From contig CANRIX010000002.1 in NCBI GenBank assembly GCA_947630765.1, positions 103,387 through 167,386 of the forward strand: a DNA stretch of 64,000 nt, given 5' to 3'. Every line of letters begins with the position of its first letter. Within the stretch, counting starts at the first letter, position 1. The stretch comes from an uncultured Clostridia bacterium (GTDB lineage: Bacteria > Bacillota > Clostridia > Oscillospirales > CAG-382). The notes beneath the pieces are model-generated. The model was not told the origin of the DNA. It made no database searches and was given only the letters and a program-made list of their open reading frames with translations. Both the position numbers and the translations under genes were made by a program. Positions 1,034 to 58,002 of this stretch are shown here, in pieces.

Positions 1034-1160
1034 GCGTAAACCGACCTCTTTCCGTCGTGGGACGTCCTTTTTTCACAGTATAACCGATTTGCGGGGAAAA
1101 TGCAAGCGTTATCGCACAGGAAAAACGCCTTCCGCCGAAAAAAACCAACGAAAATAAAAA

Positions 1161-1349
1161 TACAATAAAATTTGTTCCGGAGGCGGACATGTGCCGCCGG
1201 AGGAACTCCTTAAGAGAAAAACGGCGAAGGCGGCGTCAGAATTGGCGCAAGCCGAGCCATTTTTCGACGAAAGGGGAGTATTTGGGGGGAAAACGCAGAG
1301 CAAGGCGACGCATAGCGGCGACGCCGCGATTGCGTTTGCCCCCCGAAAG
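1161..1349. repeat. Structured intergenic repeat, copy 1 of 3 (co-oriented with copies at 28891-29092 and 55994-56193)
   Basis: Near-identical core CCTTAAGAGAAAAACGGCGAAGGCGGCGTCAGAATTGGCGCAAGCCGAGCCATTTTTCGACGAAAGG. Left hairpin 1175-1205 (TTCC GGA GGCGG ACATGTG CCGCC GGA GGAA). Right long hairpin 1284-1344 (GGGGGGAAAACGC...GCGTTTGCCCCCC). Ends 4 nt from the TAA stop of the HAD gene. Confidence 0.85.
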
Positions 1350-1353
1350 AAAG

Positions 1354-2007
1354 TTATAAAATCTCCCTGCAGAACGCATTCAGCGACGGGTAGACCGCGG
1401 CATAGGCGCGGATCTCGTCGGTCGGCGGGAACAGGTCGGGGATCATGACCACCCGCGTCCCCGCCCGACGGGCGGATTCCAACCCCGCATAGCTGTCCTC
1501 GACCGCGTAGGCGTCCGCAGGCGATACGTCCAGCAGGCGGCAGGCGGTCAGGTAGATCTCCGGGTCCGGCTTGCCGTGCAGGAACATATCCCCGGTCGTC
1601 AGGACGTTGAAGTAGGCGCGGATGTTCGCCTGTTCGAGGTTCGCGATCGCGCCCTCCCGCCGGGTCGAGGTCGCCAGGGCGATGCGGAAACCGTTTTCGT
1701 GCAGGGCGGAAAGCGTTTCGTGCAGTCCGGGCTTGAGCGGCAGACCGCGTTCGTCGATCAGGCGGCGGAAGCAGGCGGTCTTGCGGGGACCGAAATCCGC
1801 ATAGGCGACTTTTCCGCCGAACCACGCGTCGAAGATCTTTTCCGTGTCCGCTCCGTTATGACCGGCACAGCGGTCGCGAATCTCCCGAATGTCGATGCCC
1901 ATCTCCTCGCCGACGATGTCCCACGCCTCGTAGTAGACGCGTTCCGTGTCGAACAGCACGCCGTCCATGTCGAATACGACGGCTCTCGGCTTTCTTGCTC
2001 CGTTCAT
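1354..2007 (-). CDS. HAD-IA family hydrolase (beta-phosphoglucomutase-like phosphatase)
   Basis: Start trimmed to MNGARKPRAVVFDMDGVLFDT. HAD motifs present: DMDG, GKPDPEIY, EDSYAGLESARRAG. ATGA overlap with the scfB stop (2004-2007). Confidence 0.8.
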   Translation of the reverse strand: MNGARKPRAVVFDMDGVLFDTERVYYEAWDIVGEEMGIDIREIRDRCAGHNGADTEKIFDAWFGGKVAYADFGPRKTACFRRLIDERGLPLKPGLHETLSALHENGFRIALATSTRREGAIANLEQANIRAYFNVLTTGDMFLHGKPDPEIYLTACRLLDVSPADAYAVEDSYAGLESARRAGTRVVMIPDLFPPTDEIRAYAAVYPSLNAFCREIL

Positions 2008-3419
2008 ACTGGCTCCTTGACCTCTTCTTCCCGCGGCTGCCGCAGCGCGACCTGCAGCATCAATGCGCATTCGATGCGCTTGCGGAACAGCCTGCACCCG
2101 TACTCGTACACGCCCCGGATGCTCCCGGACGCGTGTATGGCGTTCGCCGCACATCCGCCGGAACAGTACAGCTTCGCCCAGCAGTCCTTGCATTCCTCCC
2201 GTGCGTACACGCTGCACCCCTTGAACTCGTCCCGCAGGGCCGTATTCGTCACGCCCTGCCAGACGTCCCCCATTCGGTAGGCCGGCTCGCCGACGAACTG
2301 GTGGCAGGGGTAAAGCTCGCCGGTCGGCGTGACCGCGAGGTATTCCGTTCCGCTTCCGCACCCGGCGAGCCGCTTATACAGGCAGGGCCCGCCGGTCAGG
2401 TCGAGGTTGTAATGGTAGAAATGGAACCCCTTTCCGGCGCGTTCCCGGCGCAGCATCTCGGCGGCGAGAAGCTCGTACTGCTCGCAGACGATCGGGAAGT
2501 CCTCCTCCGTCAGGGCGGCGGGATCCCCGGGCGCACAGACGACCGGCTCCATGGACAGCTCGGTAAAGCCGAGGTCCGCCATATGCAGCAGGTCCGGCAG
2601 GAACGCCGCGTTGCGGTGGGTGAACGTGCCGCGGACGTAGTAGTTCCGCCCGCCCCGCTTTTCGACGAAACGCTGGAACTTCGGGACGATGACGTCGTAA
2701 CTGCCCTCCCCGGACGGGGTCTTGCGCAGCGCGTCGTGCGTTTCCTTCCGCCCGTCGAGGCTGAGTACGACGTTGTGCATCTCGCGGTTGGCGAATTCCG
2801 TCACCTCGTCGTCGAGCAGGACCCCGTTGGTGGTCAGCGTGAAGCGGAAGCGCTTGCCGGTCTCCTCCTCGCGGGAACGGGCATAGGCGACCAGGCGCTT
2901 GCAGACGTCCCAGTTCAGCAGCGGCTCCCCGCCGAAGAAATCCACTTCGAGGTTCCGCCGCTTGCCGGAATGTGCGATGAGGAAATCCAGCGCCTGCTTC
3001 CCGGTTTCGTAGGACATCAGCGCACGCGGACCGTGGTACCGCCCTTGCGACGCGAAGCAGTAGGAACAGTTGAGGTTGCAGGTGTGGGCGACGTGCAGGC
3101 AGAGCGCCTTGACTTCGGTCTTGCGGGCCTTCCAATCGACGGCGACGTTTTCGTAGGTGTCCTCGGTGAACAGCTTCTTCTGCGCACGCAGGGATTCGAC
3201 GTCCGCGTACAGCTCTTCGAGCGACGAAACCGTCACTCCCGGGTCGTCCCGGTATTTTTCGAGCATGCGGCGGGTCAGTTCCGCCCGGTCGGTGGTTTCG
3301 AAAAGGGAAATGACGTCGTAGGCGAGGTCATCGACGAGGTGGACCGAGCCGGAAAAGACGTCCAGCACGACGGAATAGCCGTGCAGCTTAAATTGATGGA
3401 TCAAAAAATCACACTCCAA
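2004..3419 (-). CDS. scfB: Radical SAM/SPASM thioether-forming SCIFF peptide maturase
   Basis: 471 aa with the CNLNCSYC radical-SAM motif and a C-terminal Cys-rich SPASM region (CKDCWAKLYCSGGC). Lies immediately downstream of the SCIFF precursor. Confidence 0.9.
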   Translation of the reverse strand: MECDFLIHQFKLHGYSVVLDVFSGSVHLVDDLAYDVISLFETTDRAELTRRMLEKYRDDPGVTVSSLEELYADVESLRAQKKLFTEDTYENVAVDWKARKTEVKALCLHVAHTCNLNCSYCFASQGRYHGPRALMSYETGKQALDFLIAHSGKRRNLEVDFFGGEPLLNWDVCKRLVAYARSREEETGKRFRFTLTTNGVLLDDEVTEFANREMHNVVLSLDGRKETHDALRKTPSGEGSYDVIVPKFQRFVEKRGGRNYYVRGTFTHRNAAFLPDLLHMADLGFTELSMEPVVCAPGDPAALTEEDFPIVCEQYELLAAEMLRRERAGKGFHFYHYNLDLTGGPCLYKRLAGCGSGTEYLAVTPTGELYPCHQFVGEPAYRMGDVWQGVTNTALRDEFKGCSVYAREECKDCWAKLYCSGGCAANAIHASGSIRGVYEYGCRLFRKRIECALMLQVALRQPREEEVKEPV

Positions 3420-4096: not shown

Positions 4097-4513
4097 ATGT
4101 TTACAGGGACCTATCGACATTCGCTCGACGCGAAGGGACGGCTGATGATCCCGACGAAGCTGCGCGAGGAGCTCGGCGAGTCGTTCATGCTGACGCGCGG
4201 GCTGCAGAACTGCCTGCGCCTGTACCCGATGCGGGAATGGGAAGTATTCGCCGCCAAGATCGCCGCCCTGCCGGAATCCAAGGCGCGGGACATCCGCCAT
4301 TACTTCTACGCGAACACCTTTGAAACCTCCCCGGACGCGCAGGGGCGCATCACGCTGCCCGCCGACTGCCGGCGGTTCGCGGGGCTGACCAAGAACGTCG
4401 TGCTCGTCGGGGACAACACCCGTTTGGAGATCTGGGACGAGGACAGCTGGGATCGCCTCGACCGCTCCAACTACGACGACGTCCTGCCGATGCTCGAGGA
4501 GCTGGGCTTCTGA
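4097..4513 (+). CDS. mraZ: Transcriptional regulator MraZ
   Basis: MFTGTYRHSLDAKGRLMIPTKLRE... has the two SpoVT/AbrB-like repeats. Start moved to ATG 4097, which sits 9 nt after AAGGAGG. Confidence 0.9.
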   Translation: MFTGTYRHSLDAKGRLMIPTKLREELGESFMLTRGLQNCLRLYPMREWEVFAAKIAALPESKARDIRHYFYANTFETSPDAQGRITLPADCRRFAGLTKNVVLVGDNTRLEIWDEDSWDRLDRSNYDDVLPMLEELGF

Positions 4514-5439
4514 TGGCGTACCGACATACGACCGTGCTGCTGCACGAACTGGTGGACGCGGTGTTCACCGACCCGGACGGGGTCTACATCGACTGCACGC
4601 TCGGCGGCGGCGGACACACGTCGCTGCTACTCTCCCGCCTTTCCGAACGGGGGCGGGTCGTCGGGGTGGACCGCGACGGCGACGCCCTGCAGCATGTGCG
4701 TGAAACCGTTCGCGACGACCGCTTGCTGCTCTGCAAGCGCAACTACGCGCAAATCGCGGAGATCGCGCGGGAATTCGCGCCGGACGGCGTGACCGGGATC
4801 CTCGCGGACCTCGGGGTTTCGGGGCAGCAGCTTGACGACGCCGAACGCGGCTTCTCCTACGGCGCGGACGCGTTCTTGGATATGCGCATGGACCGTTCCC
4901 AACCGCTGACCGCCTGCGACGTGGTCAACACCTACCCGAAGGAGGAACTGGTCCGCATCCTGCGCGATTACGGCGAGGAGCGCTTCGCCGGACGGGTCGC
5001 CGACCGCATCGTCCGCGCCCGCGAACAAGCCCCGCTCCGCACGACGAAGGAGCTTGCGGCCGTCGTTTCCGCGGCCCTGCCGAAGCAGAACAAGTCCGAA
5101 GGGCACCCCTGCAAGCGGACCTTCCAAGCGATCCGCATCGAGGTCAACGGGGAGCTGTCCGGGGTGGAGAGCCTGCTTTCGGACGGGGTGCCGTGCCTGA
5201 AGAGCGGCGGACGGATGGGGGTCATCAGCTTCCATTCGCTGGAGGACAGGCTGGTCAAAACCGCCTTCGCCCGCTGGGAGAACCCCTGCACCTGCCCGAA
5301 GGACTTCCCGGTCTGCGTCTGCGGGAAGAAGCCGGTCGTCCGGGTGCTGACCCGCAAGCCGATCCTGCCGGGCGAAGCGGAACTGCAGGCCAATCACCGT
5401 GCGCACAGCGCCAAACTGCGGTGCTGCGAAAAACTTTGA
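4513..5439 (+). CDS. rsmH: 16S rRNA (cytosine1402-N4)-methyltransferase
   Basis: 308 aa. Motifs HTTVLL..E..D...D.TLGGGGHT and ISFHSLEDR. Start overlaps the mraZ stop by 1 nt. Confidence 0.9.
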   Translation: MAYRHTTVLLHELVDAVFTDPDGVYIDCTLGGGGHTSLLLSRLSERGRVVGVDRDGDALQHVRETVRDDRLLLCKRNYAQIAEIAREFAPDGVTGILADLGVSGQQLDDAERGFSYGADAFLDMRMDRSQPLTACDVVNTYPKEELVRILRDYGEERFAGRVADRIVRAREQAPLRTTKELAAVVSAALPKQNKSEGHPCKRTFQAIRIEVNGELSGVESLLSDGVPCLKSGGRMGVISFHSLEDRLVKTAFARWENPCTCPKDFPVCVCGKKPVVRVLTRKPILPGEAELQANHRAHSAKLRCCEKL

Positions 5440-5478: not shown

Positions 5479-6063
5479 ATGGCAACGCCCGTGAAAAATC
5501 CCCCGCAGGGGACGACCGTTCGGCAAAACGCTTCGTCCGGCGCACGGAGGGCTGCTCCCGCCGGACGCGGAAACGGCAAAACACCCCCCGCCGTCCGTAA
5601 GGGTCAGAAGGGTTCGCGTCGTCGCGCCGTCCGTTGGGTGTCGTTCAAAACGTTGCGCAAGCGCCGGGAGGACCGCAAGCCGTTCCCGCTCGGGATGATT
5701 TGTATCCTCGGGCTTATCACGGTCCTGCTTCTTTTTATGATGATGAACTACGCGGAGATCGATCGGTACAACGGCGAGATCCGCGACCTCAACAACCAGC
5801 TCGCGGAACTGAAAACCGAACAGACCAAGCTCAACAACCGGCTGGACGGGCGGGACAACTTTGACGCGTACCGCGCGTTCGCCGAAGAGAATCTCGGCAT
5901 GATCAAGGATACGAACGAGCCGGACCAGATCATCCTCCCCGATTTCGAGGATCGGACCGAGATCGCCGAGCAGACCGGGTCCGTCGAGGAGGAAGGCGGG
6001 GTCGGCTACCTGCTTTCCGGGATCGCGGAGGTCCTGCGGGGATTCCTGCCGCAAGGGAAATGA
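5479..6063 (+). CDS. ftsL: FtsL-like cell-division protein (basic N-tail, single TM, coiled coil)
   Basis: Position between rsmH and the PBP gene. TM FPLGMICILGLITVLLLFMMM followed by leucine-zipper-like IRDLNNQLAELKTEQTKLNNRL. Confidence 0.6.
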   Translation: MATPVKNPPQGTTVRQNASSGARRAAPAGRGNGKTPPAVRKGQKGSRRRAVRWVSFKTLRKRREDRKPFPLGMICILGLITVLLLFMMMNYAEIDRYNGEIRDLNNQLAELKTEQTKLNNRLDGRDNFDAYRAFAEENLGMIKDTNEPDQIILPDFEDRTEIAEQTGSVEEEGGVGYLLSGIAEVLRGFLPQGK

Positions 6064-6150
6064 TCGCGTCATGATTGCGCCGTCCGGCGCATATAGTAAG
6101 GAACGGAAACGCACAGACGCGTCTTGCGAAAAACACGAAAGGAAACCGAC

Positions 6151-26507: not shown

Positions 26508-27173
26508 TTATAAGCCGTACTTCGTCTTGACGCGTTCCAGCATTTCCCCGACCGGGCGGGCGAGGACGAGCAGGAACACGACGTTCGACACCGCGTACAC
26601 CGCCGTGACCGGCAGAGCGGAAAGCAGTGCCGCGACGTAGGAGATCCCGGTCCACAGGGCGGTCCAGACGTCGACGAGCAGGGAAAACAGCACGCCGGAG
26701 AGCGCCCCGAACCCGTACAGCAGCAACCGGCTCTTCTTCAGCCCCTTCGCGAACACCCCAGCGAGCAGCCCGATGATCCCCCACGCGAGCATTTGAAACG
26801 GGGTCCACGGACCCTGCCCGAAATAGAAATTGGAAAGCACGGCGGACAGCGACCCGGTCAGGAATCCCGCCTCCCCGCCGAACGCGACGCCGGCGATGAT
26901 GACGAACGCCGTCACCGGCTTGAAGAACGGCAGCATGCCGAACAGCACCCGTCCCGCGACGGACAGGGCGGTCAGGGCGGCGAGCAGGAGCAGCGTCCGG
27001 GTGCTTTTCTCCTTCCGCTCGAACGTCAGGAAGAACGGCAGGACGGACAGCACCGCGGCGCACAGCGTGACCCACACCGCTGCCTGCTCCCGGAACAGCA
27101 GCGTCCCGCCGACGACGCAGGCGGGCAGGACGGCGCAAAGCAGGACGCGGGAGAGGACTTTTCGCCGGTTCAT
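26508..27173 (-). CDS. ECF-transporter S (substrate-capture) component-like membrane protein
   Basis: 221 aa from ATG 27173 with 6 TM. Motif FKPVTAFVIIAGVAFGGEAGFLTGSLSAVLSNFYFGQGPWTPFQM. 4-nt overlap with the ATPase gene. Confidence 0.65.
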   Translation of the reverse strand: MNRRKVLSRVLLCAVLPACVVGGTLLFREQAAVWVTLCAAVLSVLPFFLTFERKEKSTRTLLLLAALTALSVAGRVLFGMLPFFKPVTAFVIIAGVAFGGEAGFLTGSLSAVLSNFYFGQGPWTPFQMLAWGIIGLLAGVFAKGLKKSRLLLYGFGALSGVLFSLLVDVWTALWTGISYVAALLSALPVTAVYAVSNVVFLLVLARPVGEMLERVKTKYGL

Positions 27174-28846
27174 GGCTTTCCCCCCGCACGGCGGCAGACG
27201 TTCACGACCTCCTCGCAGGTGATCGCGTTCGGGAAAAGCCCCCGTGCGATGCGGCTTGCGGCGGTCGTGTAGAAGCTGTTTCCGGCAAAAAAGTCGTGCG
27301 GGTCGCCCGCGGAAAGCACCTCGCCGTCGAACAGCAGGGCGCAGCGGTCGGCGTATTCCGCCGCGAATTCCACGTCGTGCGTCGCGAGCAGGACCGTCGT
27401 CCCGCCGTCCCGCAGTTCCCGCAGGAACCGCCCGAGGAAGCGCTTGTAGACCGCGTCGAGCCCTTTGGTCGGCTCGTCGAGCAGCAGCAGACGGGGCTTC
27501 GACAGCAGCAGCTTCGCGAGCGCACACTTCTGCTGCTCCCCGCCGCTCAGGTCGAACGGGTGCCGGTCGAGCAGGGACGTCACCCCCAGCCGTTCGGCTG
27601 CGGATACGGCGAGCGCTTCCCGTTCGCCGCGCGGGACGCCGAGCGCCTGCAGCAGGTCGAGGAAGTCCGCACGGACCGTGTTTTGCAGGAACACCGTCTG
27701 CGGGTTCTGCGGCAGGAGGGAAAGCCCGTTCCGATAGAGCGAACCGCCCCGGTAGGAGCCGACCGGTTTGCCGAGGACGCTGACCTTCCCGCGATAGGGC
27801 TTTTCCAGTCCGGCGATGACCTGCAGCGCCGTGGTCTTGCCCGCGCCGTTGCCGCCGAGCAGAAAGAAGCATTCCCCCGCTTCCACCCGCAGGGAGGTCC
27901 CGCGCAGGACGTCCGGGCTTTGCTTCGCGTAGCGGAAGTAGACCTCCCGCAGTTCGACCGCAGGTTCGCCCGTGCGTGCGGGGGATTCGAACGGCGTTTC
28001 GGACGGTTCGGACGGCGCATAGTGCGCTTCCAGGACCTCCCGCCCTTCCCGGACGGTCAGCGGGCAGTCCCCGGAAAGCCCGAGCGACCGAAAAATACGC
28101 ACTGCGCTCGGCAGTCCCGCCGAAAGCACGCACCCTTCCGGCAGCTTAGACGGGTCGCCGACCTCGCGGGGCGGACCGAACAGCACCGATTTTCCCGCTT
28201 CGAGCAGCAGCACCCTGTCCGCCAGCGGGAACGCTTCCTCCAGCCGGTGCTCCGCGAGCAGGACCGTGATGCCGAGCTCCCGGTTGAGCTTCCGAAGCGT
28301 CGAAAGGAATTCCGAAGCGGCGATCGGGTCGAGCTGACCGGTCGGTTCGTCGAGCAGTAACAACTTCGGCTGTAGGACCGTCGCGGACGCGAGGTTGACC
28401 AACTGCTTCTGCCCGCCCGAAAGCGTGTCCGTCGCCTGCCGGAACTGCGCTTCCAGCCCGAAATAGCTTGCCGTTTCCGCGACCCGACGGCGGATCACGT
28501 CGTTCGGCAGACCGAGGCTTTCCGCGCCGAACGCCAATTCGTGCCAGACCTTGTCCGTCACGATCTGCCCGTCCGGGTTCTGCCCGACAAAGCCGATGTC
28601 GGACGCGCTTTCACGCGCGTCGAGCGCTTCCTGCGGTCGACCGCCGAAAAGGATCCGTCCGTTTTTTTTGCCGTGCGGGGAAATTTCTCGCTTCAGCAGG
28701 CGCAGGAGCGTGGATTTCCCGCAGCCGGACGCCCCGCAGAGCAGCACGAATTCCCCCGCTTCCATGGAGAACGACAGGTCCGACAGGGCGTCCGCCTGTG
28801 CGTTCGGATAGCGGAAGGACAGATTTTCGACTTGCAGGAACGGCAT
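27170..28846 (-). CDS. Duplicated (A-A fused) ABC/ECF-transporter ATPase
   Basis: 558 aa from ATG 28846 (MPFLQVENLSFRY). Two Walker A motifs (GASGCGKST, GGNGAGKTT) and two LSGGQ-type signatures. Confidence 0.85.
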   Translation of the reverse strand: MPFLQVENLSFRYPNAQADALSDLSFSMEAGEFVLLCGASGCGKSTLLRLLKREISPHGKKNGRILFGGRPQEALDARESASDIGFVGQNPDGQIVTDKVWHELAFGAESLGLPNDVIRRRVAETASYFGLEAQFRQATDTLSGGQKQLVNLASATVLQPKLLLLDEPTGQLDPIAASEFLSTLRKLNRELGITVLLAEHRLEEAFPLADRVLLLEAGKSVLFGPPREVGDPSKLPEGCVLSAGLPSAVRIFRSLGLSGDCPLTVREGREVLEAHYAPSEPSETPFESPARTGEPAVELREVYFRYAKQSPDVLRGTSLRVEAGECFFLLGGNGAGKTTALQVIAGLEKPYRGKVSVLGKPVGSYRGGSLYRNGLSLLPQNPQTVFLQNTVRADFLDLLQALGVPRGEREALAVSAAERLGVTSLLDRHPFDLSGGEQQKCALAKLLLSKPRLLLLDEPTKGLDAVYKRFLGRFLRELRDGGTTVLLATHDVEFAAEYADRCALLFDGEVLSAGDPHDFFAGNSFYTTAASRIARGLFPNAITCEEVVNVCRRAGGKP

Positions 28847-28890
28847 GAACGGGCTCCTTTCGGGGAATATGACTTCACATAAAGATAAAA

Positions 28891-29092
28891 TACGATAAAA
28901 TATTGTTTCGGAGACGGACATGTGCCGGCTCCGAAACACCTTAAGAGAAAAATGGCGATGGCGGCGTCAGAAGTGGCGCAAGCCGAGCCATTTTTCGATG
29001 AAAAGGGGGGGCTTTGGGGGAAAAACGCAGAGCAAGACGGTGCGGCGACGAAGTCGCTGCCGGCACCGCGATTGCGTTTGTCCCCCAAAAAA
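28891..29092. repeat. Structured intergenic repeat, copy 2 of 3
   Basis: Same core as copy 1 with a few substitutions. Left hairpin 28906-28936 (TTTCGGAG A CGG ACATGTG CCG G CTCCGAAA). Right hairpin 29016-29086. Ends 2 nt from the TAA stop of the 71-aa gene. Confidence 0.85.
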
Positions 29093-29094
29093 CT

Positions 29095-29310
29095 TTACGT
29101 CTTCGGGTCTTGCTTTCTTGCCGGGAACAAGGTGCAGCCGTAGGACCGCCATTCCTCGATCTTCCCGCGCAGCAGCGCTTCCGACACGCCAAACCGCTTC
29201 GCGAGGCAGGGGACACACCGATACGCCGTCGACGCGCGGTTGATGAGCTTGCGGGTCGCGCCGATATCGTCCGGGGTCAGCGCCCGTCCGCAGTCAAGGC
29301 ATTCAGGCAT
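29095..29310 (-). CDS. Small CxxC...CxxC zinc-ribbon-like protein (71 aa)
   Basis: MPECLDCGRALTPDDIGATRKLINRASTAYRCVPCLAKRFGVSEALLRGKIEEWRSYGCTLF. 8-nt overlap with the GH27 gene end. Confidence 0.55.
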   Translation of the reverse strand: MPECLDCGRALTPDDIGATRKLINRASTAYRCVPCLAKRFGVSEALLRGKIEEWRSYGCTLFPARKQDPKT

Positions 29311-31163: not shown

Positions 31164-33194
31164 ATGCGTATGAAAAGAACCCTATGCCTCGTGCTGTTTG
31201 CGGTGCTGGCGGTCGCTTCGCTTTTGCAGGCGCTCCCGGCGCTTCCCGCTTCCGCAGAGGAGCCGCTTGTAAATATCGCGCGCGGCTGTTCCTACACGTC
31301 CTCCGATCCGTATATACTGGATTTGGACAAGAATCCCGGTACATACCGCGATAAGAAGTACAACGAACTGACCGACGGCGTCAAGGGGCATTCCCTTTAC
31401 GGGCCGGAATGGTATGCCTATAACGGTGCGAACGCCTACACGGTCACGATCGACCTCGGCTCGGTCCGCTCCGGCATCACCCGGCTTGCCGCCGAATTCT
31501 GCGACAACAACGGCGCCGCCGTTTATCTGCCCGTGAATCCGAAGTTTGCCGGGTCGACGGACGGCAAAACCTTCACGGACATCGGAAAACCGTGGGACGC
31601 GATGGCGGTGAAGGGTGCGGAAAAGACCGCGTACCATACCTATTATCTCGACCTCGACCAATCGGTTTCCTACCGCTATATCCGGCTGACCTTCGATAAG
31701 GGCGGGTTCTTCGTGTTCCTATCCGAAGTCGAGGTGTTCACCGGCTACGTTTCCGATTTGATCTTCCGTGAAGGCGACGCCTACCGTGACACGTCGGACA
31801 ATACGGTCTGCGGGCTGCGTGCCGGGACGACGGTCGGGGAGTTCCTTTCGCAGCTCAACACCCGTTCCGGCGTCACCTTGCTGGACGCGAAAGGAAACGC
31901 CAAGACGACCGGCCTTGTCGCGACCGGCGACGTGCTGGAAAAGAAGCAGGCGAGCGGAAGCGCGACGCGATTGCCCGTCGTCATTCTCGGCGACGTCAAC
32001 GGAGACGGGAAAGTGAATGCTACGGACTATATGCTGCTCAAGCGGCACGTCCTGCGGACATATTCGATCCCGGAAAAGAACCGCAAGGCGGCGAATATTT
32101 CCGCATCAGACGGAATCAACGCCACGGACTATATGCTGCTCAAGCGGCATGTGCTGGGCACATACAATATCTATGGCAATTCGCAGGGCGCAACGGATGA
32201 AGGCGGTCGCGGGGACGTGACGAGCGAATACCGCAATATGGATACGTCCGACAACATCGAAACCCTCACGAGCCATGCCATGACCTTCAGTCGCACGGCG
32301 GAAACCACCTACAGCGTGACCTGCCAGACCTACGGCGGGACGCTGCTGCTGACCTTCTACCGCACCGGCTGGGGCACCTATAACCTCGGCAAGTGGCAAT
32401 TGACCGACGGCGACGGTTCGCATACGTTCATCGCCGGGGCGACCGACTGGGAGTACGTTTACCGTGTCGCGCCGTCGGCGAGCGCCGGCTGGGTCTGGTC
32501 CGGCGGCAACCACGCCAACGAGAAACTGCGTTCCCTGCATTTCTATGACGGCAAGACGAACAAGGAACTTTCGCTCTCCGTCGGGCAGTCGGTTTCGGTA
32601 GACAACCTGAAGATCGTCGAGGAGACCACGCTGTATTGGGATCCGGCCGGTTCGGACGGGAAATACAATTACAGCGAGAGCAACCGCTACTGCGACGCGG
32701 TCCGCACCTATGCGATCGTCGGTCCGCAGATCCGTCTTGCCGTGGATTACGATTACTGCTACGGCAAGGACGCCTACTACGATACCTCCTATACCTGCAT
32801 GTTCCCGATCGAAAAGCTCTACGGCCTTTACTGCGCCTTCCTTGACGGCAAGGAGAACCTCCTTTCCGTCGTCGAAACGCTCAAGAAGGGCGACCCGACC
32901 TACAACGGGAAGCAGTATGACGGCAACGCGGCGGAACGCTGCGTCGTCTGGGGCTACGACGGACGGGAAAAGTACAAGTTCGACGTGCGCGTCCTGACGC
33001 CGGATACCAGCTGCAACAACTTCGACAACAAGATGAAGGTCTCCTTCTGGGACATGAATACGACGACCAATAAGATCTACTTCTCCAAGTTCCCGAAAGG
33101 AAACTACGCTGCCGGGAGCGCGGGAAGCGCGAAGCAAAAGATTTCCGCCGGAAGCCAGATCCACACGGAATGCCAGTGGACGTTCTACGAGTAA
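31164..33194 (+). CDS. Secreted multidomain protein: signal peptide, F5/8-type-C (CBM32-like) domain, internal type-I dockerin, about 330-aa C-terminal domain of unknown function
   Basis: Signal peptide ...LPALPASA. Discoidin-like region ending YRYIRLTF. Dockerin duplicated segments GDVNGDGKVNATDYMLLKRHVL and SDGINATDYMLLKRHVL. Confidence 0.75.
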   Translation: MRMKRTLCLVLFAVLAVASLLQALPALPASAEEPLVNIARGCSYTSSDPYILDLDKNPGTYRDKKYNELTDGVKGHSLYGPEWYAYNGANAYTVTIDLGSVRSGITRLAAEFCDNNGAAVYLPVNPKFAGSTDGKTFTDIGKPWDAMAVKGAEKTAYHTYYLDLDQSVSYRYIRLTFDKGGFFVFLSEVEVFTGYVSDLIFREGDAYRDTSDNTVCGLRAGTTVGEFLSQLNTRSGVTLLDAKGNAKTTGLVATGDVLEKKQASGSATRLPVVILGDVNGDGKVNATDYMLLKRHVLRTYSIPEKNRKAANISASDGINATDYMLLKRHVLGTYNIYGNSQGATDEGGRGDVTSEYRNMDTSDNIETLTSHAMTFSRTAETTYSVTCQTYGGTLLLTFYRTGWGTYNLGKWQLTDGDGSHTFIAGATDWEYVYRVAPSASAGWVWSGGNHANEKLRSLHFYDGKTNKELSLSVGQSVSVDNLKIVEETTLYWDPAGSDGKYNYSESNRYCDAVRTYAIVGPQIRLAVDYDYCYGKDAYYDTSYTCMFPIEKLYGLYCAFLDGKENLLSVVETLKKGDPTYNGKQYDGNAAERCVVWGYDGREKYKFDVRVLTPDTSCNNFDNKMKVSFWDMNTTTNKIYFSKFPKGNYAAGSAGSAKQKISAGSQIHTECQWTFYE

Positions 33195-34386: not shown

Positions 34387-34393
34387 ATCGAAT

Positions 34394-34485
34394 ATACGCC
34401 GGGGAGCTTGCAGACAGGCTGAGAGGAAGGTGCGCCCTTCGACCCGTGACCTGATTTGGATAATGCCAACGTAGGGAACTTTCAG
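34394..34485 (+). promoter_or_regulatory. TPP (THI-box) riboswitch aptamer
   Basis: Conserved elements GGGGAGC...CTGAGA...ACCC...ACCTGATTTGGATAATGCCAACGTAGGGAA, directly upstream of thiS. Confidence 0.85.
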
Positions 34486-34499
34486 CGATTGCTTGCATC

Positions 34500-51293: not shown

Positions 51294-51370
51294 GGCGGAA
51301 TAGCTCAGTTGGCTAGAGCAATCGGTTCATACCCGGTCGGTCGTCGGTTCGAGTCCAACTTCCGCTACCA
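51294..51370 (+). tRNA. tRNA-Met (anticodon CAT), elongator type
   Basis: Hand-folded cloverleaf: acceptor GGCGGAA/TTCCGCT, D arm GCTC/GAGC, anticodon loop TTCATAC, T loop TTCGAGT, encoded CCA. Confidence 0.85.
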
Positions 51371-51372
51371 AA

Positions 51373-51447
51373 GGCCCGTTGGTCAAGGGGTTAAGACACC
51401 GCCCTTTCACGGCGGTAACAGCAGTTCAAATCTGCTACGGGTCACCA
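51373..51447 (+). tRNA. tRNA-Glu (anticodon TTC)
   Basis: Acceptor GGCCCGT/ACGGGTC, anticodon stem CCGCC/GGCGG with loop CTTTCAC, T loop TTCAAAT, encoded CCA. Confidence 0.9.
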
Positions 51448-55054: not shown

Positions 55055-55936
55055 ATGTCCGTTTGTATGCTCTGTCCGCGCCGATGCGGGGCGAACCGCG
55101 AAGTCCGTCCCGGGTACTGCGGCGCAGATGGAATTGTGCGGGTCGCCCGCGCCGCCCCGCACGCCTGGGAGGAACCGTTCCTTTCCGGCACGCGTGGGTC
55201 GGGAGCGGTTTTCTTTTCCGGGTGCCAGCTGAAGTGCGTCTACTGCCAGAATCGGGAAATTTCGCACGGCGGGGCGGGAAAACCGCTGACCGTGCGGCAG
55301 CTTGCCGACGTGTTCCTGTCCCTGCAGGCGAAGCGGGTGCATAACATCAACCTCGTCACGCCCGACCCGTACTTCCCGCAGGTCGCCGAAGCGCTGCGGA
55401 CGGCGAAAGCGGACGGGCTTCGTCTGCCGGTCGTCTGCAATTGCAGCGGCTACGAGACCGTGGAAATGCTGCGGTCAGTCGAGGGGTTGGTGGATATTTA
55501 CCTGCCCGATTTCAAGTATCTGTCCCCGCTGACGGCGAAAAAATATTCCGCCGCACCCGATTATCCCGCCGTCGCGAAGGCGGCGATCGCCGAAATGGTG
55601 CGACAGCAGCCGACCCTCCGCCGGAACCGGCAGGGGATTCTGCAAACCGGGGTTGTCGTGCGGCACCTGCTGCTGCCCGGACAGGTCTCGGACGCGAAAC
55701 GGGTGATTGCGTACCTGCATACGACCTACGGCGACCAAATCTGGCTGAGCATCATGCGCCAGTATACCCCGTTCCGCCCGGTCGCGTACCCCGAACTGGA
55801 CCGCACCGTGACGGAGGAGGAATACGACGAGCTCGTCGGGTTCGCGGTCAAGCTCGGCGTGCGGCACGCGTTCGTGCAGGAGGGATCCGCCGCGTCCGAG
55901 AGCTTCCTCCCGCCGTTCGACGGGGAAGGGGTTTGA
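55055..55936 (+). CDS. Radical SAM protein, PflA-like activating-enzyme family
   Basis: N-terminal CPRRCGANR...YCG motif and the radical-SAM CQLKCVYCQN motif. Confidence 0.8.
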   Translation: MSVCMLCPRRCGANREVRPGYCGADGIVRVARAAPHAWEEPFLSGTRGSGAVFFSGCQLKCVYCQNREISHGGAGKPLTVRQLADVFLSLQAKRVHNINLVTPDPYFPQVAEALRTAKADGLRLPVVCNCSGYETVEMLRSVEGLVDIYLPDFKYLSPLTAKKYSAAPDYPAVAKAAIAEMVRQQPTLRRNRQGILQTGVVVRHLLLPGQVSDAKRVIAYLHTTYGDQIWLSIMRQYTPFRPVAYPELDRTVTEEEYDELVGFAVKLGVRHAFVQEGSAASESFLPPFDGEGV

Positions 55937-55993
55937 CGAAAGGCAGAAGAAGCCGTTTGGCGGGCTTCAAAATTTTGAAAAAATATTTAGAAA

Positions 55994-56193
55994 TATAATC
56001 AAAATGTCGTCCCGTAGGCGGACATGTGCCGCCGGAGGGACTCCTTAAGAGAAAACGGCGAAGGCGGCGTCAGAAGTGGCGCAAGCCGAGCCGTTTTTCG
56101 ATGAAAAGGGGGAATGTTCGGGGGGAAAACACAGAGCAAGGCGGAGCGCACGAAGTGCGCGAAGTCGCCGCGATTGCGTTTGCCCCCCGAAAG
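55994..56193. repeat. Structured intergenic repeat, copy 3 of 3
   Basis: Same core. Left hairpin 56009-56041 (GTCCC GTA GGCGG ACATGTG CCGCC GGA GGGAC). Right hairpin 56120-56188. Ends 3 nt from the TAA stop of pepF. Confidence 0.85.
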
Positions 56194-56196
56194 TTC

Positions 56197-58002
56197 TTAC
56201 GGGTGCAGTTTTTCGTAAAGTGCACGGAACTGCTCGACGGTCGCCGCAAAATCAGCGATGGCGTCCTCGATGACTTCGGGCTTGGTCAGGTCGATGTCGG
56301 CGACGAGCAGGCTGTCGAGCGGACTGCGGGAACCGCCGCACTTGAGGAAGTCGAGGTACTTCTGCACATACGCGTCCCCTTGCGTTTCAATCTTCTTGAC
56401 GATGCTCGACGCGGCGGAGATGCAGGTCGCGTACTTGTACACATAGAAATTATAGTAGAAATGCGGGATCCGCATCCATTCGTAGGCGATCTGCTTGTCG
56501 CAGACGACGTCCTTGCCGAAGTAACGCTTGACGAGTTCGTAGTACCGTTTACTTAACAGGTCCTTCGTGAGCGTCTCACCGGCTTCGCACAGGGCGTGCA
56601 TTTCCTTCTCGAAGGAAGCGAACATGGTCTGCCGGTAGAGCGTTCCCTTGTAGGTCTCCATAAGCTGGTTGAGGATATACAGCTTTTCCTCGTCGCTGTC
56701 CGATTCGCGCAGCAGCTTGTGGAACAGGATCAGCTCGTTGACGGTCGAAGCGACCTCGGCGACGAAGATCGTGTACCGGGATTCCTGCGGCGTGTTCGCC
56801 TTGGCGGAATACCAGCTGTGCATCGAATGTCCCGCCTCGTGCGCGAGGGTGGAAACGTCGTCGAGCGTGTTGGTGTAGTTGAGCAGGATATACGGCTGCG
56901 TGTCGTAGGAGCCGGCGCTGTAGGCACCGCCGCGTTTGCCCTTGTTCGGGTAGACGTCCGCCCAGCCCTTGCTCTTCAGTCCGTCCGCGAGCGTGTCGCG
57001 GTACTCGCTTCCGTAGACCTTGACGGCGTCGAGCACGATCTCCACGGCTTCCTCATAACCGTATTTGCGGTCGCAGGAGGTGATCAGCGGGGTGTAGATG
57101 TCGTACAGGTGCAGGGCGGGCAGTCCGAGCGCACGCTTCTTGAGCGCGTAGTAGTCGAACAGCGGACGGAGGTTGCGCTCGACCGTGTCGATCAGGTTGT
57201 TGTAGATGACCGGCGTAACCTCGTCGTGGAAAACGGACGCTTCGAGGCTGTTGGAGAATTTGCGCACGCGGGCGACCGTCACGCGCTCCTTGACGAACCC
57301 GTTGAGCAGGGCGGCGAACGTGTTGCCGTAGCGATCGTACGTTTCGTAGAGCTTGGTGAACGCCGCACGGCGGACCCGGCGGTCGGTGCTCATCAGCAGC
57401 GGGACGTAGGTCGTGTCCGTCAGGCGAAGCTCCTTGCCGTCCTCGCCCTTGATCTTGCCGAACAGCAGGTCCGCGTTCGCAAAGACGCTGCGGATGTCGT
57501 CGTGCGAATTGAGCGCCCCCTGCAGGTTCGCCAGCAGCTTCTCGCATTCGTCGGAAAGCGTATGCGGGCGGTACCGGCGGGCGAGCGTGATGGCACGGCG
57601 GAATTCCTTGAGCTTCGGGTAGGATTCGTACCATTCGGTCAGCGTTTTCTCCTTCAGCTTCATCAGGCAGGGGTCGACGAAGAAGGCGGCGGCCGCGAGG
57701 TCCTCGTCCAGCCGCAGCACCTTTCCGCGCAGGGCGAGATAGGTATTATCCGACGTGTCCACGTCGGAATGCAGGCTCGCGTACTCGTACAGCTTGGAGA
57801 TCAGACGGCTGAGCCGCTCGGAATCGCAGAACATGTCGTACAGTCCCTCCGGGCTTTGGCACATGGTCTTTTGGTGCTTGGGGAAATCGGCAATCAGCTC
57901 CTTGGTACGGGCGAAGTCGGCGTCGAACGCCGCCATGTCCGCGTAGATCGCGGAAAGGTCCCATTTGTATTTTGCGGGAATATCCGCACGGTTATCGGTC
58001 AT
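56197..58002 (-). CDS. pepF: Oligoendopeptidase F (M3B family)
   Basis: 601 aa with the zinc motif HEAGHSMH. Confidence 0.9.
   Translation of the reverse strand: MTDNRADIPAKYKWDLSAIYADMAAFDADFARTKELIADFPKHQKTMCQSPEGLYDMFCDSERLSRLISKLYEYASLHSDVDTSDNTYLALRGKVLRLDEDLAAAAFFVDPCLMKLKEKTLTEWYESYPKLKEFRRAITLARRYRPHTLSDECEKLLANLQGALNSHDDIRSVFANADLLFGKIKGEDGKELRLTDTTYVPLLMSTDRRVRRAAFTKLYETYDRYGNTFAALLNGFVKERVTVARVRKFSNSLEASVFHDEVTPVIYNNLIDTVERNLRPLFDYYALKKRALGLPALHLYDIYTPLITSCDRKYGYEEAVEIVLDAVKVYGSEYRDTLADGLKSKGWADVYPNKGKRGGAYSAGSYDTQPYILLNYTNTLDDVSTLAHEAGHSMHSWYSAKANTPQESRYTIFVAEVASTVNELILFHKLLRESDSDEEKLYILNQLMETYKGTLYRQTMFASFEKEMHALCEAGETLTKDLLSKRYYELVKRYFGKDVVCDKQIAYEWMRIPHFYYNFYVYKYATCISAASSIVKKIETQGDAYVQKYLDFLKCGGSRSPLDSLLVADIDLTKPEVIEDAIADFAATVEQFRALYEKLHP

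Follow-up and report, generated by a model that had tools for sequence, protein, structure and literature searches.

An interspersed repeat of uncultured gut Clostridia that lies mostly just behind stop codons

Among known interspersed repeats, SPRITE resembles a terminator and is found preferentially at CDS 3' ends, and BOX has a modular build (PMC3049150). Citing its ref. 17, PMC12306157 states that E. coli REPs lying within 15 nt of a stop codon stall ribosomes; this source and its ref. 17 also place 260 of the 496 members of one E. coli REP set (roughly half) within that distance, name mRNA 3' end protection and ribosome stalling as roles of REPs, and describe BIMEs as mosaics of modules. 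Classical MITEs can supply terminators, promoters or RNase sites (PMC10969869, PMC3184786). The repeat described here adds a family from uncultured, GC-rich gut Clostridia to the few known 3'-end repeats (SPRITE, REP, BOX). It is a new repeat family of a known kind, the bacterial interspersed repeat, and not a new kind of system.

The window (the whole 64-kb stretch of DNA that we analysed) holds exactly three full copies, all on the minus strand, as found with a profile built from the three copies themselves (E 2e-62 to 3e-66). Mean column identity in their alignment is 85%. The view of an earlier note on this DNA that the copies form one repeat family with hairpins at both ends is supported. 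The copies and their neighbouring features are as follows.

1077..1105, minus strand: native promoter-like site TTGCAT-17-TATACT, serving the downstream DUF308 gene (437-1033)
1156..1348, minus strand: repeat copy 1, with hairpin A at 1348-1281 (short-tip variant), domain B at 1266-1216, hairpin C at 1206-1174 and tail at 1173-1156
1354..2007, minus strand: HAD-family phosphatase gene (217 aa; PF13419), its TAA 5 nt before copy 1
27170..28846, minus strand: ECF-type ABC ATPase gene (PF00005), its start 40 nt past the tail of copy 2
28886..29090, minus strand: repeat copy 2, with hairpin A at 29090-29013, domain B at 28997-28947, hairpin C at 28937-28905 and tail at 28904-28886
29095..29310, minus strand: small Cys-rich ORF (71 aa, CxxC...CxxC), its TAA 4 nt before copy 2
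55055-55936, plus strand: radical SAM ORF (Pfam PF04055)
55937..55993, no strand assigned: rest of the native pepF/radical-SAM intergenic region, as judged by comparing filled (window, L007) with empty (L036-L039) sites
55994..56192, minus strand: repeat copy 3 (nhmmer E = 3.3e-66, and folding), with hairpin A at 56192-56117, C-rich linker at 56116-56101, domain B at 56100-56051, AAGGAG spacer at 56050-56042, hairpin C at 56041-56009 and U-rich tail at 56008-55994
56197..58002, minus strand: pepF (oligoendopeptidase F, 601 aa; ORF, homologues with PF08439/PF01432), its TAA 4 nt before copy 3

At the junction of copy 1, TAA (1356-1354) is followed by CTTTC and then TTTCGGGGGG; at that of copy 2, TAA (29097-29095) is followed by AGTT and TTTTGGGGGA; and at that of copy 3, TAA (56199-56197) is followed by GAAC and again TTTCGGGGGG. 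The gap between stop and element is therefore 4-5 nt in the window copies, and the stop is always TAA. These junctions, their coordinates, the U-rich tails and the TTGCAT-17-TATACT promoter (1105-1077) are all present as the earlier note described them. Because the promoter-like site is also present in a relative with an empty site (L052), it is part of the locus and not of the repeat. Copy 3 lies between convergent genes (pepF and the radical SAM gene, which ends at 55936) rather than co-directional ones, and its inverted repeats are confined to hairpins A and B. Copy 2 is shared with strain L041, in which the ABC protein is 97% identical and an ECF S component neighbours the ABC ATPase gene; a Pfam search with the 71-aa Cys-rich ORF gave no match. 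The orthologue of copy 1 in L016 has the same domain B and hairpin C and a different hairpin A.

The element is non-coding and 190-260 bp long. It consists of a GC-rich hairpin A, which has a G-run/C-run base and a hypervariable tip; domain B, a branched hairpin of almost invariant sequence; and hairpin C, from which a 4-nt spacer separates a U-rich tail. Short perfect palindromes occur as optional modules at four positions, and copies exchange modules. Base pairing is kept in 92.8% of cells, against about 50% in slid controls, and double changes are seen in 18 of 49 pairs, with 118 compensatory cells against 43 in shuffles (a value reached by 0 of 500 shuffles). Such compensatory changes may come from palindrome-templated repair instead of selection on RNA. 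A template-switch-like change is seen in copy L029a. No terminal inverted repeats were found, the termini TTTCGGGGGG... and ...ATTGTATTTTTG being unrelated, and hairpin A (GGGGGGCAAACGC...) has no sequence in common with hairpin C (GTTCCTCCGGCGGCACATGTCC...).

Coding roles were considered and rejected. Many copies have an open antisense Arg-rich ORF with GGAGG-N5-ATG, but its frame shifts in the second half, it is cut to 26 codons in copy 3 and its start is gone in others; it is not conserved, and neither is a sense mini-ORF beginning at a loop ATG.

Tens of copies per genome have accumulated in one small clade. Two related rabbit-gut Clostridia MAGs contain 36 exact-core matches plus further and partial copies, with a copy number of at least 17-18 per MAG, and the 64-kb window contains 3. 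The repeats had no match in Rfam when the whole window was searched at gathering thresholds, and copy 3 searched at E <= 10 gave a chance 13.8-bit match alone. Nor was there a match to the repeat in plasmid and phage collections or IMG/VR, or to the core pattern in JGI metagenomes. A degenerate hairpin-C pattern gave, in the same metagenomes, five chance matches in coding DNA and one real relative: an element on an unrelated contig (L047) with the same hairpin C and no U tail. Contigs end inside the repeat in L041 (there within copy 2), L002, L012, L028 and L031. In practice the repeat breaks metagenome assemblies, and annotation pipelines would mis-score it as an sRNA or a terminator.

Relatives lacking the element at two of the window loci, some at about 87% DNA identity and others further removed, show how it came to be there. 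At pepF the site is filled in the window and in L007, and empty in L036/L037 (87% DNA identity), L038, L039 and L040; pepF ends in the same CCG-TAA in relatives that lack the element. At HAD, the window, L016 and L048-L051 carry the element, and L052/L053 and L054 have the empty site. Here the empty allele TGA-TTTTTCGCGG... matches a filled allele that reads TAA-CTTTC, then the element, then TTTTCGTTGG..., and the empty allele of L052 reads TGA-TTTTTCGCGGTTTTTTGC. These empty sites at pepF (L036-L040) and HAD (L052-L054) imply that the element arrived by insertion, as one of the two hypotheses of the earlier note had it, and we consider it very probable that the family as a whole is an insertion-derived interspersed repeat. 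The insertion point is a short T/A-rich stretch past the stop codon and ahead of the native terminator or promoter. Downstream of copy 3, the native sequence at 55937..55993 keeps a remnant of a bidirectional terminator (GAAGCC..GGCTTC, then the CTTCTGCCTTTC arm common to the empty sites), and the pepF-proximal arm of this terminator has decayed in the filled pepF loci.

Target duplication was sought in the flanks and no clear case emerged: for 36 of 37 copies, flank repeats stayed within the range of shuffled controls. A possible duplication of 4-5 nt, TTTC/TTTTC on either side of the element, would agree with the comparison of filled and empty HAD alleles and also with L032, but is inseparable from the T-rich ends. 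A long target duplication was rejected, its sole case being a 38-nt gene-end duplicate in L034 that looks like imported DNA rather than a product of insertion.

We then asked how general the placement behind stop codons is. Our census comprised 39 copies, from the window and two MAGs, and counted those whose 5' end lies no more than 15 nt from a co-oriented stop under conservative gene calling. There were 23 such copies, against 1.55 ± 1.19 expected (maximum 7 in 2000 simulations; binomial p ~1e-22); by eye, about 27 of 39 copies qualify. The chance of this placement for a random intergenic position and orientation in the same sequences is about 4%, so that three of three copies would be found there by chance with a probability of about 6e-5. 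The placement read from the three window copies as precise, behind stops of unrelated genes, is thus highly non-random (23 of 39 against 1.55), but it is no rule: because about one-third of the family is not behind a co-oriented stop, three of three reflects a strong tendency. About 10 of the 39 copies lie away from gene 3' ends or in the opposite orientation, placements that the earlier note had named as counting against its reading. About 27 copies have a co-oriented gene upstream and 9-10 a divergent one. The gene downstream shows no bias (16 co-directional, 18 convergent) at distances from 18 to more than 900 nt, and the 3' end of the element rarely abuts anything. The neighbouring genes have no common function. 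A TTTY motif was rejected as the sole cause of the placement, since fewer than 1% of intergenic sites, under conservative gene calling, fall within 15 nt after a co-oriented stop.

The spacing from stop to element ranges from 0 to 13 nt with unrelated intervening bases, and the stops used are TAA, TGA or TAG; ten copies have no stop nearby. TAA is enriched beside the copies (16 of 23, against 82 of 256, or 32%, genome-wide; p = 5e-4), which points to an A/T-rich or context preference. This enrichment would also suit the proposal, made in the earlier note, of a non-autonomous element of IS200/IS605 type (PATE), mobilised as single-stranded DNA by an HUH enzyme and inserting beside a short (R)TAA motif, as would the lack of terminal inverted repeats and of a long target duplication and the hairpins at the very ends. 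The variable gap, the unrelated bases within it, the mixed stops and the ten copies distant from any stop speak against such a target. Further, the census of flanks found no motif common to either junction, and neither end is abutted by a conserved tetra- or pentanucleotide. One TnpA dimer recognises similar hairpins at both IS200/IS605 ends, whereas hairpins A and C are unrelated. No association of orientation with GC skew was detected (22 positive and 18 negative flanks, a comparison of low power with weak skew), and neither the window nor about 240 kb of loci showed TnpA/TnpB. Together, these observations make the proposal very improbable. No transposase was found near the copies, in agreement with the earlier note, which saw none in the window; no intra-genome repeats of at least 500 nt, as a sign of multicopy IS, were found among 35 loci.

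Other targets and identities were also set aside. An IS91-like GTTC/CTTG target occurs beside only about 5 copies. An integron attC or gene cassette site was rejected on the lack of RYYYAAC...GTTRRRY cores and on the neighbours, which are housekeeping genes in synteny conserved with relatives. Readings as tRNA-like elements or riboswitches were considered and dropped.

Stop adjacency might be mechanistic, going beyond what survival of insertions would leave, and for this we envisage two versions. Integration could be guided to places where translation or transcription terminates, such as single-stranded DNA or a complex paused at the 3' end of a gene; or the repeat could be a mobile 3' UTR device in which hairpin A senses terminating ribosomes and the invariant core recruits a common factor. 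We regard the two versions jointly as quite unlikely. To our knowledge, stop-codon-proximal, transcription-oriented target choice has been described for no bacterial element. If the geometry is a matter of target choice, it hints at a novel way of finding gene ends; if it is functional, a ribosome-sensitive 3' UTR would be common to many unrelated genes, and in the device version dozens of them would belong to one translation-coupled post-transcriptional regulon.

What the element does to the transcript depends on the strand that is read. On the sense strand, hairpin C has a mean dG of -20.8 kcal/mol and is followed by 7.2 U on average in the next 12 nt; its stem contains a 3x3 internal loop, and the UUU(U) run starts past a 4-nt spacer in 31 of 37 copies. 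Judged by sequence, the polarity and the U-rich tail fit the idea of a 3' UTR or terminator cassette, which the earlier note had raised. The idea is weakened by the 4-nt spacer between stem and U tract, by the better folding of the antisense strand and by the invariant core, which a plain terminator does not need. A simple terminator (consensus) scan left hairpin C uncalled in all three window copies, and in copy 3 its one call was a shorter alternative stem with the same 3' arm and tail. A sense-strand 3' UTR or terminator role is accordingly a possibility that we lean slightly against.

The antisense strand gives the more stable fold in each of the 37 copies, with a difference of about 15 kcal/mol, some 10 above the composition-based prediction, and helix counts of 34 G-U against 57 A-C (one terminal pair excluded) do not favour the sense strand and leave the strand call ambiguous. 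These observations raise the possibility that the opposite (window plus) strand is the functional one, with -10-like hexamers in the tail (TACAAT, TAAAAT) driving a structured antisense RNA that would run across the element and reach the 3' end of the gene upstream. The A-C mismatches of the sense strand, which are G-U pairs in antisense, outnumber its G-U pairs; sense ATTGTA, or antisense TACAAT, is conserved in most copies; and at copy 2 the tail coincides in part with a plus-strand promoter-like site (10 of 12 matches). No such site was called at the tails of copies 1 and 3, however, a -35 region would fall in the non-conserved flank, and there is no terminator on the plus strand. Further, A/T-rich tails yield -10-like hexamers by chance, and the energy gap comes largely from extra G-U helices, which are perhaps not real. 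We consider antisense function decidedly unlikely.

Copies 1 and 2 lie upstream of co-directional genes, where hairpin C and the U tract could attenuate transcription, as expected if the element regulated the downstream gene in the manner of a 5' leader, attenuator or riboswitch. Such regulation is hard to reconcile with downstream genes that are convergent or co-directional in a ratio of 18:16 and begin or end anywhere from 18 to more than 900 nt away, with copy 3 facing the 3' end of a convergent gene, or with the native promoter for the gene downstream of copy 1, which sits beyond the element. There is also no Rfam match, and we hold this role to be extremely improbable.

Domain B changes little where the hairpins around it change much. 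Between orthologous pairs from species about 90% identical in DNA, 50-52 of its 52 positions are identical in four of five pairs (42 of 52 in the fifth), while hairpins A and C of the same pairs are 71-86% identical and gain or lose modules. Its unpaired bases and apical loop are invariant in 37 copies, and the CCCCCUUUU linker is single-stranded in every fold. Domain B conservation is partly an ascertainment effect, because copies were located by a pattern inside it, and there are counterexamples: in the unbiased copy at L001 1960-2125 the domain has diverged strongly, and in L029a it is rewritten. One explanation for the conservation is a 3' UTR regulatory module selected by the host, in which domain B, perhaps with the C-rich, anti-Shine-Dalgarno-like linker, recruits an RNA-binding factor and places dozens of unrelated genes in one post-transcriptional circuit, mobility being only the means of dispersal. 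The 96-100% identity of domain B in four of five orthologous pairs beside diverging hairpins, its invariant unpaired bases, the single-stranded linker and the tight, polar placement behind stops would all be expected of such a module. Set against this are the ascertainment effect and its two counterexamples, neighbours without a common function, and the one-third of copies that lie elsewhere. We judge host selection of this kind to be rather unlikely.

Taken as a whole, the observations are best explained by a lineage-specific, non-autonomous interspersed repeat of about 190-260 bp, with three fixed parts and optional palindromic modules, resembling SPRITE/BOX or stop-proximal REPs, with putative co-transcription as a 3' UTR; we consider this explanation moderately probable. 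The orientation mostly puts hairpin A 0-13 nt past a stop, and the repeat would be co-transcribed with the upstream gene as its 3' UTR. Hairpin C and the U tail may end or protect the upstream transcript, as proposed for pneumococcal SPRITE, and hairpin A would fall within the footprint of the terminating ribosome, the geometry at which E. coli REPs stall ribosomes. A trans-acting protein, which could be a mobilising enzyme or an RNA-binding factor, may recognise the invariant domain B and the conserved hairpin C loop. The family is of interest for its unusually clean positional polarity, with the 5' end 0-13 nt past a stop in about two-thirds of copies, and for an invariant core combined with real empty-site comparisons.

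Among described systems, SPRITE is likewise a small interspersed repeat of a Firmicute with a long stem followed by a U-rich tract unlike that of normal terminators, found preferentially near CDS 3' ends and between convergent genes. It has been proposed to be a mobile parasite that came to serve as a terminator, and has no demonstrated partner transposase. The present element differs in sharing no sequence similarity, in being about twice as long, and in adding hairpin A, the invariant branched core and the optional modules; its 5' end mostly lies 0-13 nt from the stop with fixed polarity, and a conserved 4-nt spacer sets its U tract apart from the stem. Streptococcal BOX (boxA-boxB(n)-boxC; PMC3049150) similarly has constant end modules and optional or variable internal modules that fold independently, and is dispersed in intergenic regions with clustered or nested insertions. 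The terminal inverted similarity of boxA and boxC and the link to ISSpn2 belong to BOX, whereas the ends of the present element are unrelated and, in place of tandem boxB units, it has optional short perfect palindromes at four positions.

Like classical MITEs (Correia, RUP, ERIC in Yersinia, Nezha; PMC10969869, PMC3184786), the repeat is short, non-coding, highly structured, multicopy and intergenic, with presence/absence polymorphism between relatives; unlike what defines MITEs, no terminal inverted repeats and no clear target-site duplication were found. With the IS200/IS605-derived PATEs it shares subterminal hairpins and the lack of inverted terminal repeats and of a long duplication, but it differs in having no conserved target motif, dissimilar end hairpins, no TnpA/TnpB seen in the loci covered and no detected replication-strand bias (22:18, with weak skew and low power). 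Unlike REP/BIME, whose 20-40-nt unit has a GTAG-type head, hundreds of copies and a tie to RAYT transposases, the present element is about 200 nt long with three different hairpins, another sequence and no RAYT found alongside, and its detected range is a narrow Clostridia clade. What it shares with stop-proximal REP/BIME is the placement of GC-rich extragenic hairpins inside the footprint of the terminating ribosome, here with 23-27 of 39 copies no more than 15 nt from the stop.

On the minus strand, the earlier note had placed three copies of a roughly 200-base repeat behind TAA stop codons, and the sequence matches that description exactly at all three junctions:

Copy 1, 1156-1348, minus strand: HAD gene TAA (1356-1354), then CTTTC, then TTTCGGGGGG
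Copy 2, 28886-29090, minus strand: TAA of a small Cys-rich ORF (29097-29095), then AGTT, then TTTTGGGGGA
Copy 3, 55994-56192, minus strand: pepF TAA (56199-56197), then GAAC, then TTTCGGGGGG

When aligned, these copies have a mean column identity of 85%, and a profile built from them finds no other full match in the 64-kb window (all three on the minus strand, E 2e-62 to 3e-66); self-comparison of the window reveals no other dispersed repeats. Genes lie on both strands of the window, so the copies' shared orientation does not simply follow from a region read on one strand. Copies 1 and 2 are flanked by co-directional genes and copy 3 by convergent ones, pepF and a radical SAM gene whose end is at 55936. 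The window also contains:

34390-34494, plus strand: TPP riboswitch (Rfam RF00059, 64.2 bits), upstream of a plus-strand gene
51294-51367 and 51373-51444, plus strand: two adjacent tRNA genes
32016-32062 and 32118-32164: 47-nt direct repeat, 87% identical, spacing 102 nt, apparently within the 31164-33194 ORF
2004-3419, minus strand: radical SAM/SPASM-type maturase gene, upstream of the HAD gene

The maturase gene is preceded, in a near-identical strain (L048 1069-2732), by one for a SCIFF (six-cysteines-in-forty-five) peptide, so that a SCIFF peptide-maturase pair lies upstream of HAD.

Read 5' to 3' on the minus (sense) strand, the repeat is composed of:

Hairpin A, minus strand: base UUUC-GGGGGG...CCCCCC-GAAA; middle CAAACGCA/UGCGUUU; tip variable in length and sequence
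Linker after hairpin A, minus strand: C-rich, single-stranded, consensus ACCCCCUUUUCGU
Domain B, minus strand: 10-bp stem GAAAACCGGC/GCCGGUUUUC around a branched, almost invariant GGCUCGGCUUGCGCCACUUCUGACGCCGCC
Spacer between domain B and hairpin C, minus strand: AAGGAG/GAGGUG
Hairpin C, minus strand: 5-bp outer stem; 3x3 internal loop or paired variant; GGCGG/CCGCC inner stem; loop around CACAUGU
Tail, minus strand: 4-nt spacer (GAUA, AUUA), then UUUU-A-UUGUAUUUUUG

No Rfam family matches the repeat. Its two ends do not form inverted repeats with each other. An antisense Arg-rich ORF of 55-60 codons, from an ATG/GTG in the hairpin C loop, runs across all family members (in the window on the plus strand across each copy, e.g. 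1189-1360), with GGAGG-N5 before the start in some copies and an open frame in about two thirds; we judged it non-coding, given a frame shift in its second half, its 26 codons in copy 3 and a start missing in several copies.

Beyond the window, 185,579 species-representative genomes were scanned for the exact core pattern and only two contained it, both MAGs of uncultured Clostridia from rabbit gut (prefixes CANQTR and CANQVQ), with 36 matches at 35 loci; a profile search of the 35 MAG loci returned 38 strong copies together with diverged and partial ones. Two of these loci (L016 and L007) share 92% DNA identity with orthologous stretches of the window and have copy 1 and copy 3, respectively, in the same positions. 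Copy 2 is also present in a near-identical strain, on a contig that breaks inside it. The repeat was not found in plasmid, phage, IMG/VR or JGI metagenome collections. A degenerate hairpin C pattern recovered one real relative, on the unrelated metagenome contig Ga0129308_1023669 (L047 1402-1550), so exact-pattern scans probably underestimate the spread of this architecture. Its parts follow the same order (G-run/C-run hairpin, C-rich linker, short middle hairpin, GAGGUG and an identical hairpin C); it is shorter, begins about 10 nt past a TAG that closes a 320-codon ORF, and in place of a U tail carries another G-run/C-run hairpin. The rabbit-gut MAGs carry further intergenic repeat families, such as a AAGGGACTTTTTGAAAAAAGTCCCTT hairpin and a GGGCGTGACGGCAACGGCGG unit (L001 1900-2520; L022 480-800; L013 6250-6310; L015 4990-5110), none of which occurs in the window. 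In the same regions there are also tail-to-head fragments, a domain-B-like module standing alone and a strongly diverged relative of the repeat. Around L001's further repeats, an inversion distinguishes L001 from L029.

For the placement of copies relative to genes we used a conservative, composition-based gene caller and counted a 5' end within 15 nt of a co-oriented ORF stop. Such a stop was present for 23 of 39 copies, against 1.55 ± 1.19 under random intergenic placement (maximum 7 in 2000 trials; binomial p ~1e-22), so the claim that every copy sits behind a stop stands as a strong excess and not for each family member. Inspection of junctions by eye raises the number to about 27. About 27 copies have a co-oriented upstream gene and 9-10 a divergent one; downstream, co-directional and convergent genes are nearly balanced (16:18), and the repeat's 3' end rarely adjoins anything. 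This census couples the repeat's 5' end to the gene's 3' end, strongly though not absolutely, and it disfavours a reading of the repeat as a leader of the downstream gene.

Among the stop-adjacent copies 16 of 23 follow TAA, compared with 82 of 256 among all called genes (Fisher p = 5e-4). The gap between stop and repeat is 0-13 nt of sequence unrelated between copies, and the stop codon is thus neither a fixed-register target nor supplied by the repeat; the pepF end, CCG-TAA, is identical in relatives with and without the repeat. The earlier note's alternative of an IS200/IS605-type element with an (R)TAA-type target fails on the target motif and on end hairpins that do not match. Nor does orientation show the strand bias expected of such elements, being unrelated to local GC skew (22:18, a weak test since skew is low).

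That the repeat was inserted, as one of the same note's two hypotheses had it, is borne out by empty orthologous sites at two loci. Homologues of pepF at 92, 87, 85 and 82% identity lie in conserved synteny without the repeat (L036-L040), only 39-71 nt from the next gene. These few nucleotides form a bidirectional terminator; where the repeat is present, the arm nearer pepF has decayed and the distal arm (CGGCTTCTTCTGCCTTTC) is kept after the repeat. The HAD locus is filled in strains with an identical HAD protein (L048-L051) and empty in relatives with 89% (an assembly of 87% DNA identity) and 81% protein identity (L052-L054):

HAD empty allele: TGA-TTTTTCGCGGTTTTTTGC...TTGCAT
HAD filled allele: TAA-CTTTC[element]TTTTCGTTGGTTTTTTTCG...TTGCAT

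Comparison of these alleles places the repeat between the stop codon and a native T-rich segment, with the native promoter intact. The HAD stop is TAA in filled alleles (window 1354-1356, L016) and TGA in an empty one (L052 10652-10654). A short TTTC/TTTTC duplication at insertion is possible from these sequences; any longer target duplication is absent from 36 of 37 copies. The 87% relative has no copy in about 42 kb, a length for which the window's density would give about two; this fits a recent expansion in the clade of the window and the rabbit-gut MAGs. At one locus (L034, minus strand) the repeat (4376-4576) is immediately followed by a duplicate (4330-4375) of the end of its clpP-like upstream gene, comprising the last 11 codons and the TAA; 7 of its 38 positions depart from the coding copy, each of them a synonymous third position. 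Its sequence suggests a foreign allele imported with the repeat by homology-facilitated illegitimate recombination, with an inferred empty site of GAATAA|AAAGTTTTG.

Support for the hairpins is strong, with 92.8% of cells paired against about 50% in slid controls; both sides have changed in 18 of 49 pairs, and compensatory cells number 118 against 43 in shuffles, none of 500 of which reaches 118. Template switching in DNA palindromes can yield compensatory changes without selection. In domain B of one copy (L029 2930-3129), CTCGGCTTG has become CTGCGTCAG, the exact reverse complement of the downstream CTGACGC, perfecting the palindrome, a multi-base change that reads as the signature of such switching. 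Orthologous copies in species ~90-92% identical are, moreover, mosaics. Copy 1 and its L016 orthologue (5931-6127) agree at 104 of 106 positions over domain B, hairpin C and tail and at 51 of 67 in hairpin A (1281-1348), where they represent different subtypes with compensating changes; in two further pairs (L030/L021, and the L029 copy with L001) one orthologue has whole optional modules that the other lacks. These patterns point to conversion or module exchange between copies and, together with the template-switch signature, mean that hairpin support alone does not prove RNA function. Domain B is 50-52/52 identical in four of five orthologous pairs whose flanking genes are ~91% identical, which suggests sequence-specific constraint; its apparent invariance across the family is partly due to how copies were found.

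Gene polarity speaks for the minus (sense) strand, and so does the U-rich tail. Three further results are either neutral or in favour of the opposite strand: that strand folds more stably in all 37 copies (-100.8 versus -85.9 kcal/mol, an advantage ~10 kcal/mol beyond composition-matched shuffles), G-U pairs in defined helices number 34 sense-only (one terminal pair excluded) and 57 antisense-only, and the tail holds antisense -10-like hexamers, so that the functional strand cannot be called from these features. Hairpin C is stable, averaging -20.8 kcal/mol, with an average of 7.2 U in the next 12 nt; 31 of 37 copies have a conserved 4-nt spacer ahead of the U run. A consensus terminator scan did not call hairpin C in window copies 1-3; its call in copy 3 is a shorter alternative stem sharing the 3' arm and tail. 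The hairpin C loop sequence is conserved across lineages, and a plain terminator needs no conserved loop.

Insertion and polarity are demonstrated by these data. As the likeliest working model we infer three steps: the repeat enters the A/T-rich gap past stop codons by some enzyme, would be co-transcribed as a 3' UTR with hairpin A within the terminating ribosome's footprint, and would end or protect the transcript through hairpin C and the tail, with domain B and the hairpin C loop as putative recognition sites for a mobilising or binding protein. A mechanistic coupling to stop codons, or a mobile 3' UTR regulon, seems to us improbable. That insertions survive in the one gap which compact 3' regions leave free accounts for proximity to stops but not for polarity, and the point of interest is what causes the 5' end to hug stop codons in one orientation.

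The family is real, statistically strong and apparently undescribed, and belongs to a kind of element already known. It fits non-autonomous interspersed repeats such as SPRITE and BOX of streptococci and REP of E. coli. SPRITE, a repeat that resembles a terminator, clusters at CDS 3' ends and is regarded as co-opted for termination, and BOX is modular (PMC3049150); about half of one E. coli REP set (260/496) lies within 15 nt of a stop codon and stalls ribosomes there, according to the passage of PMC12306157 that cites its ref. 17.
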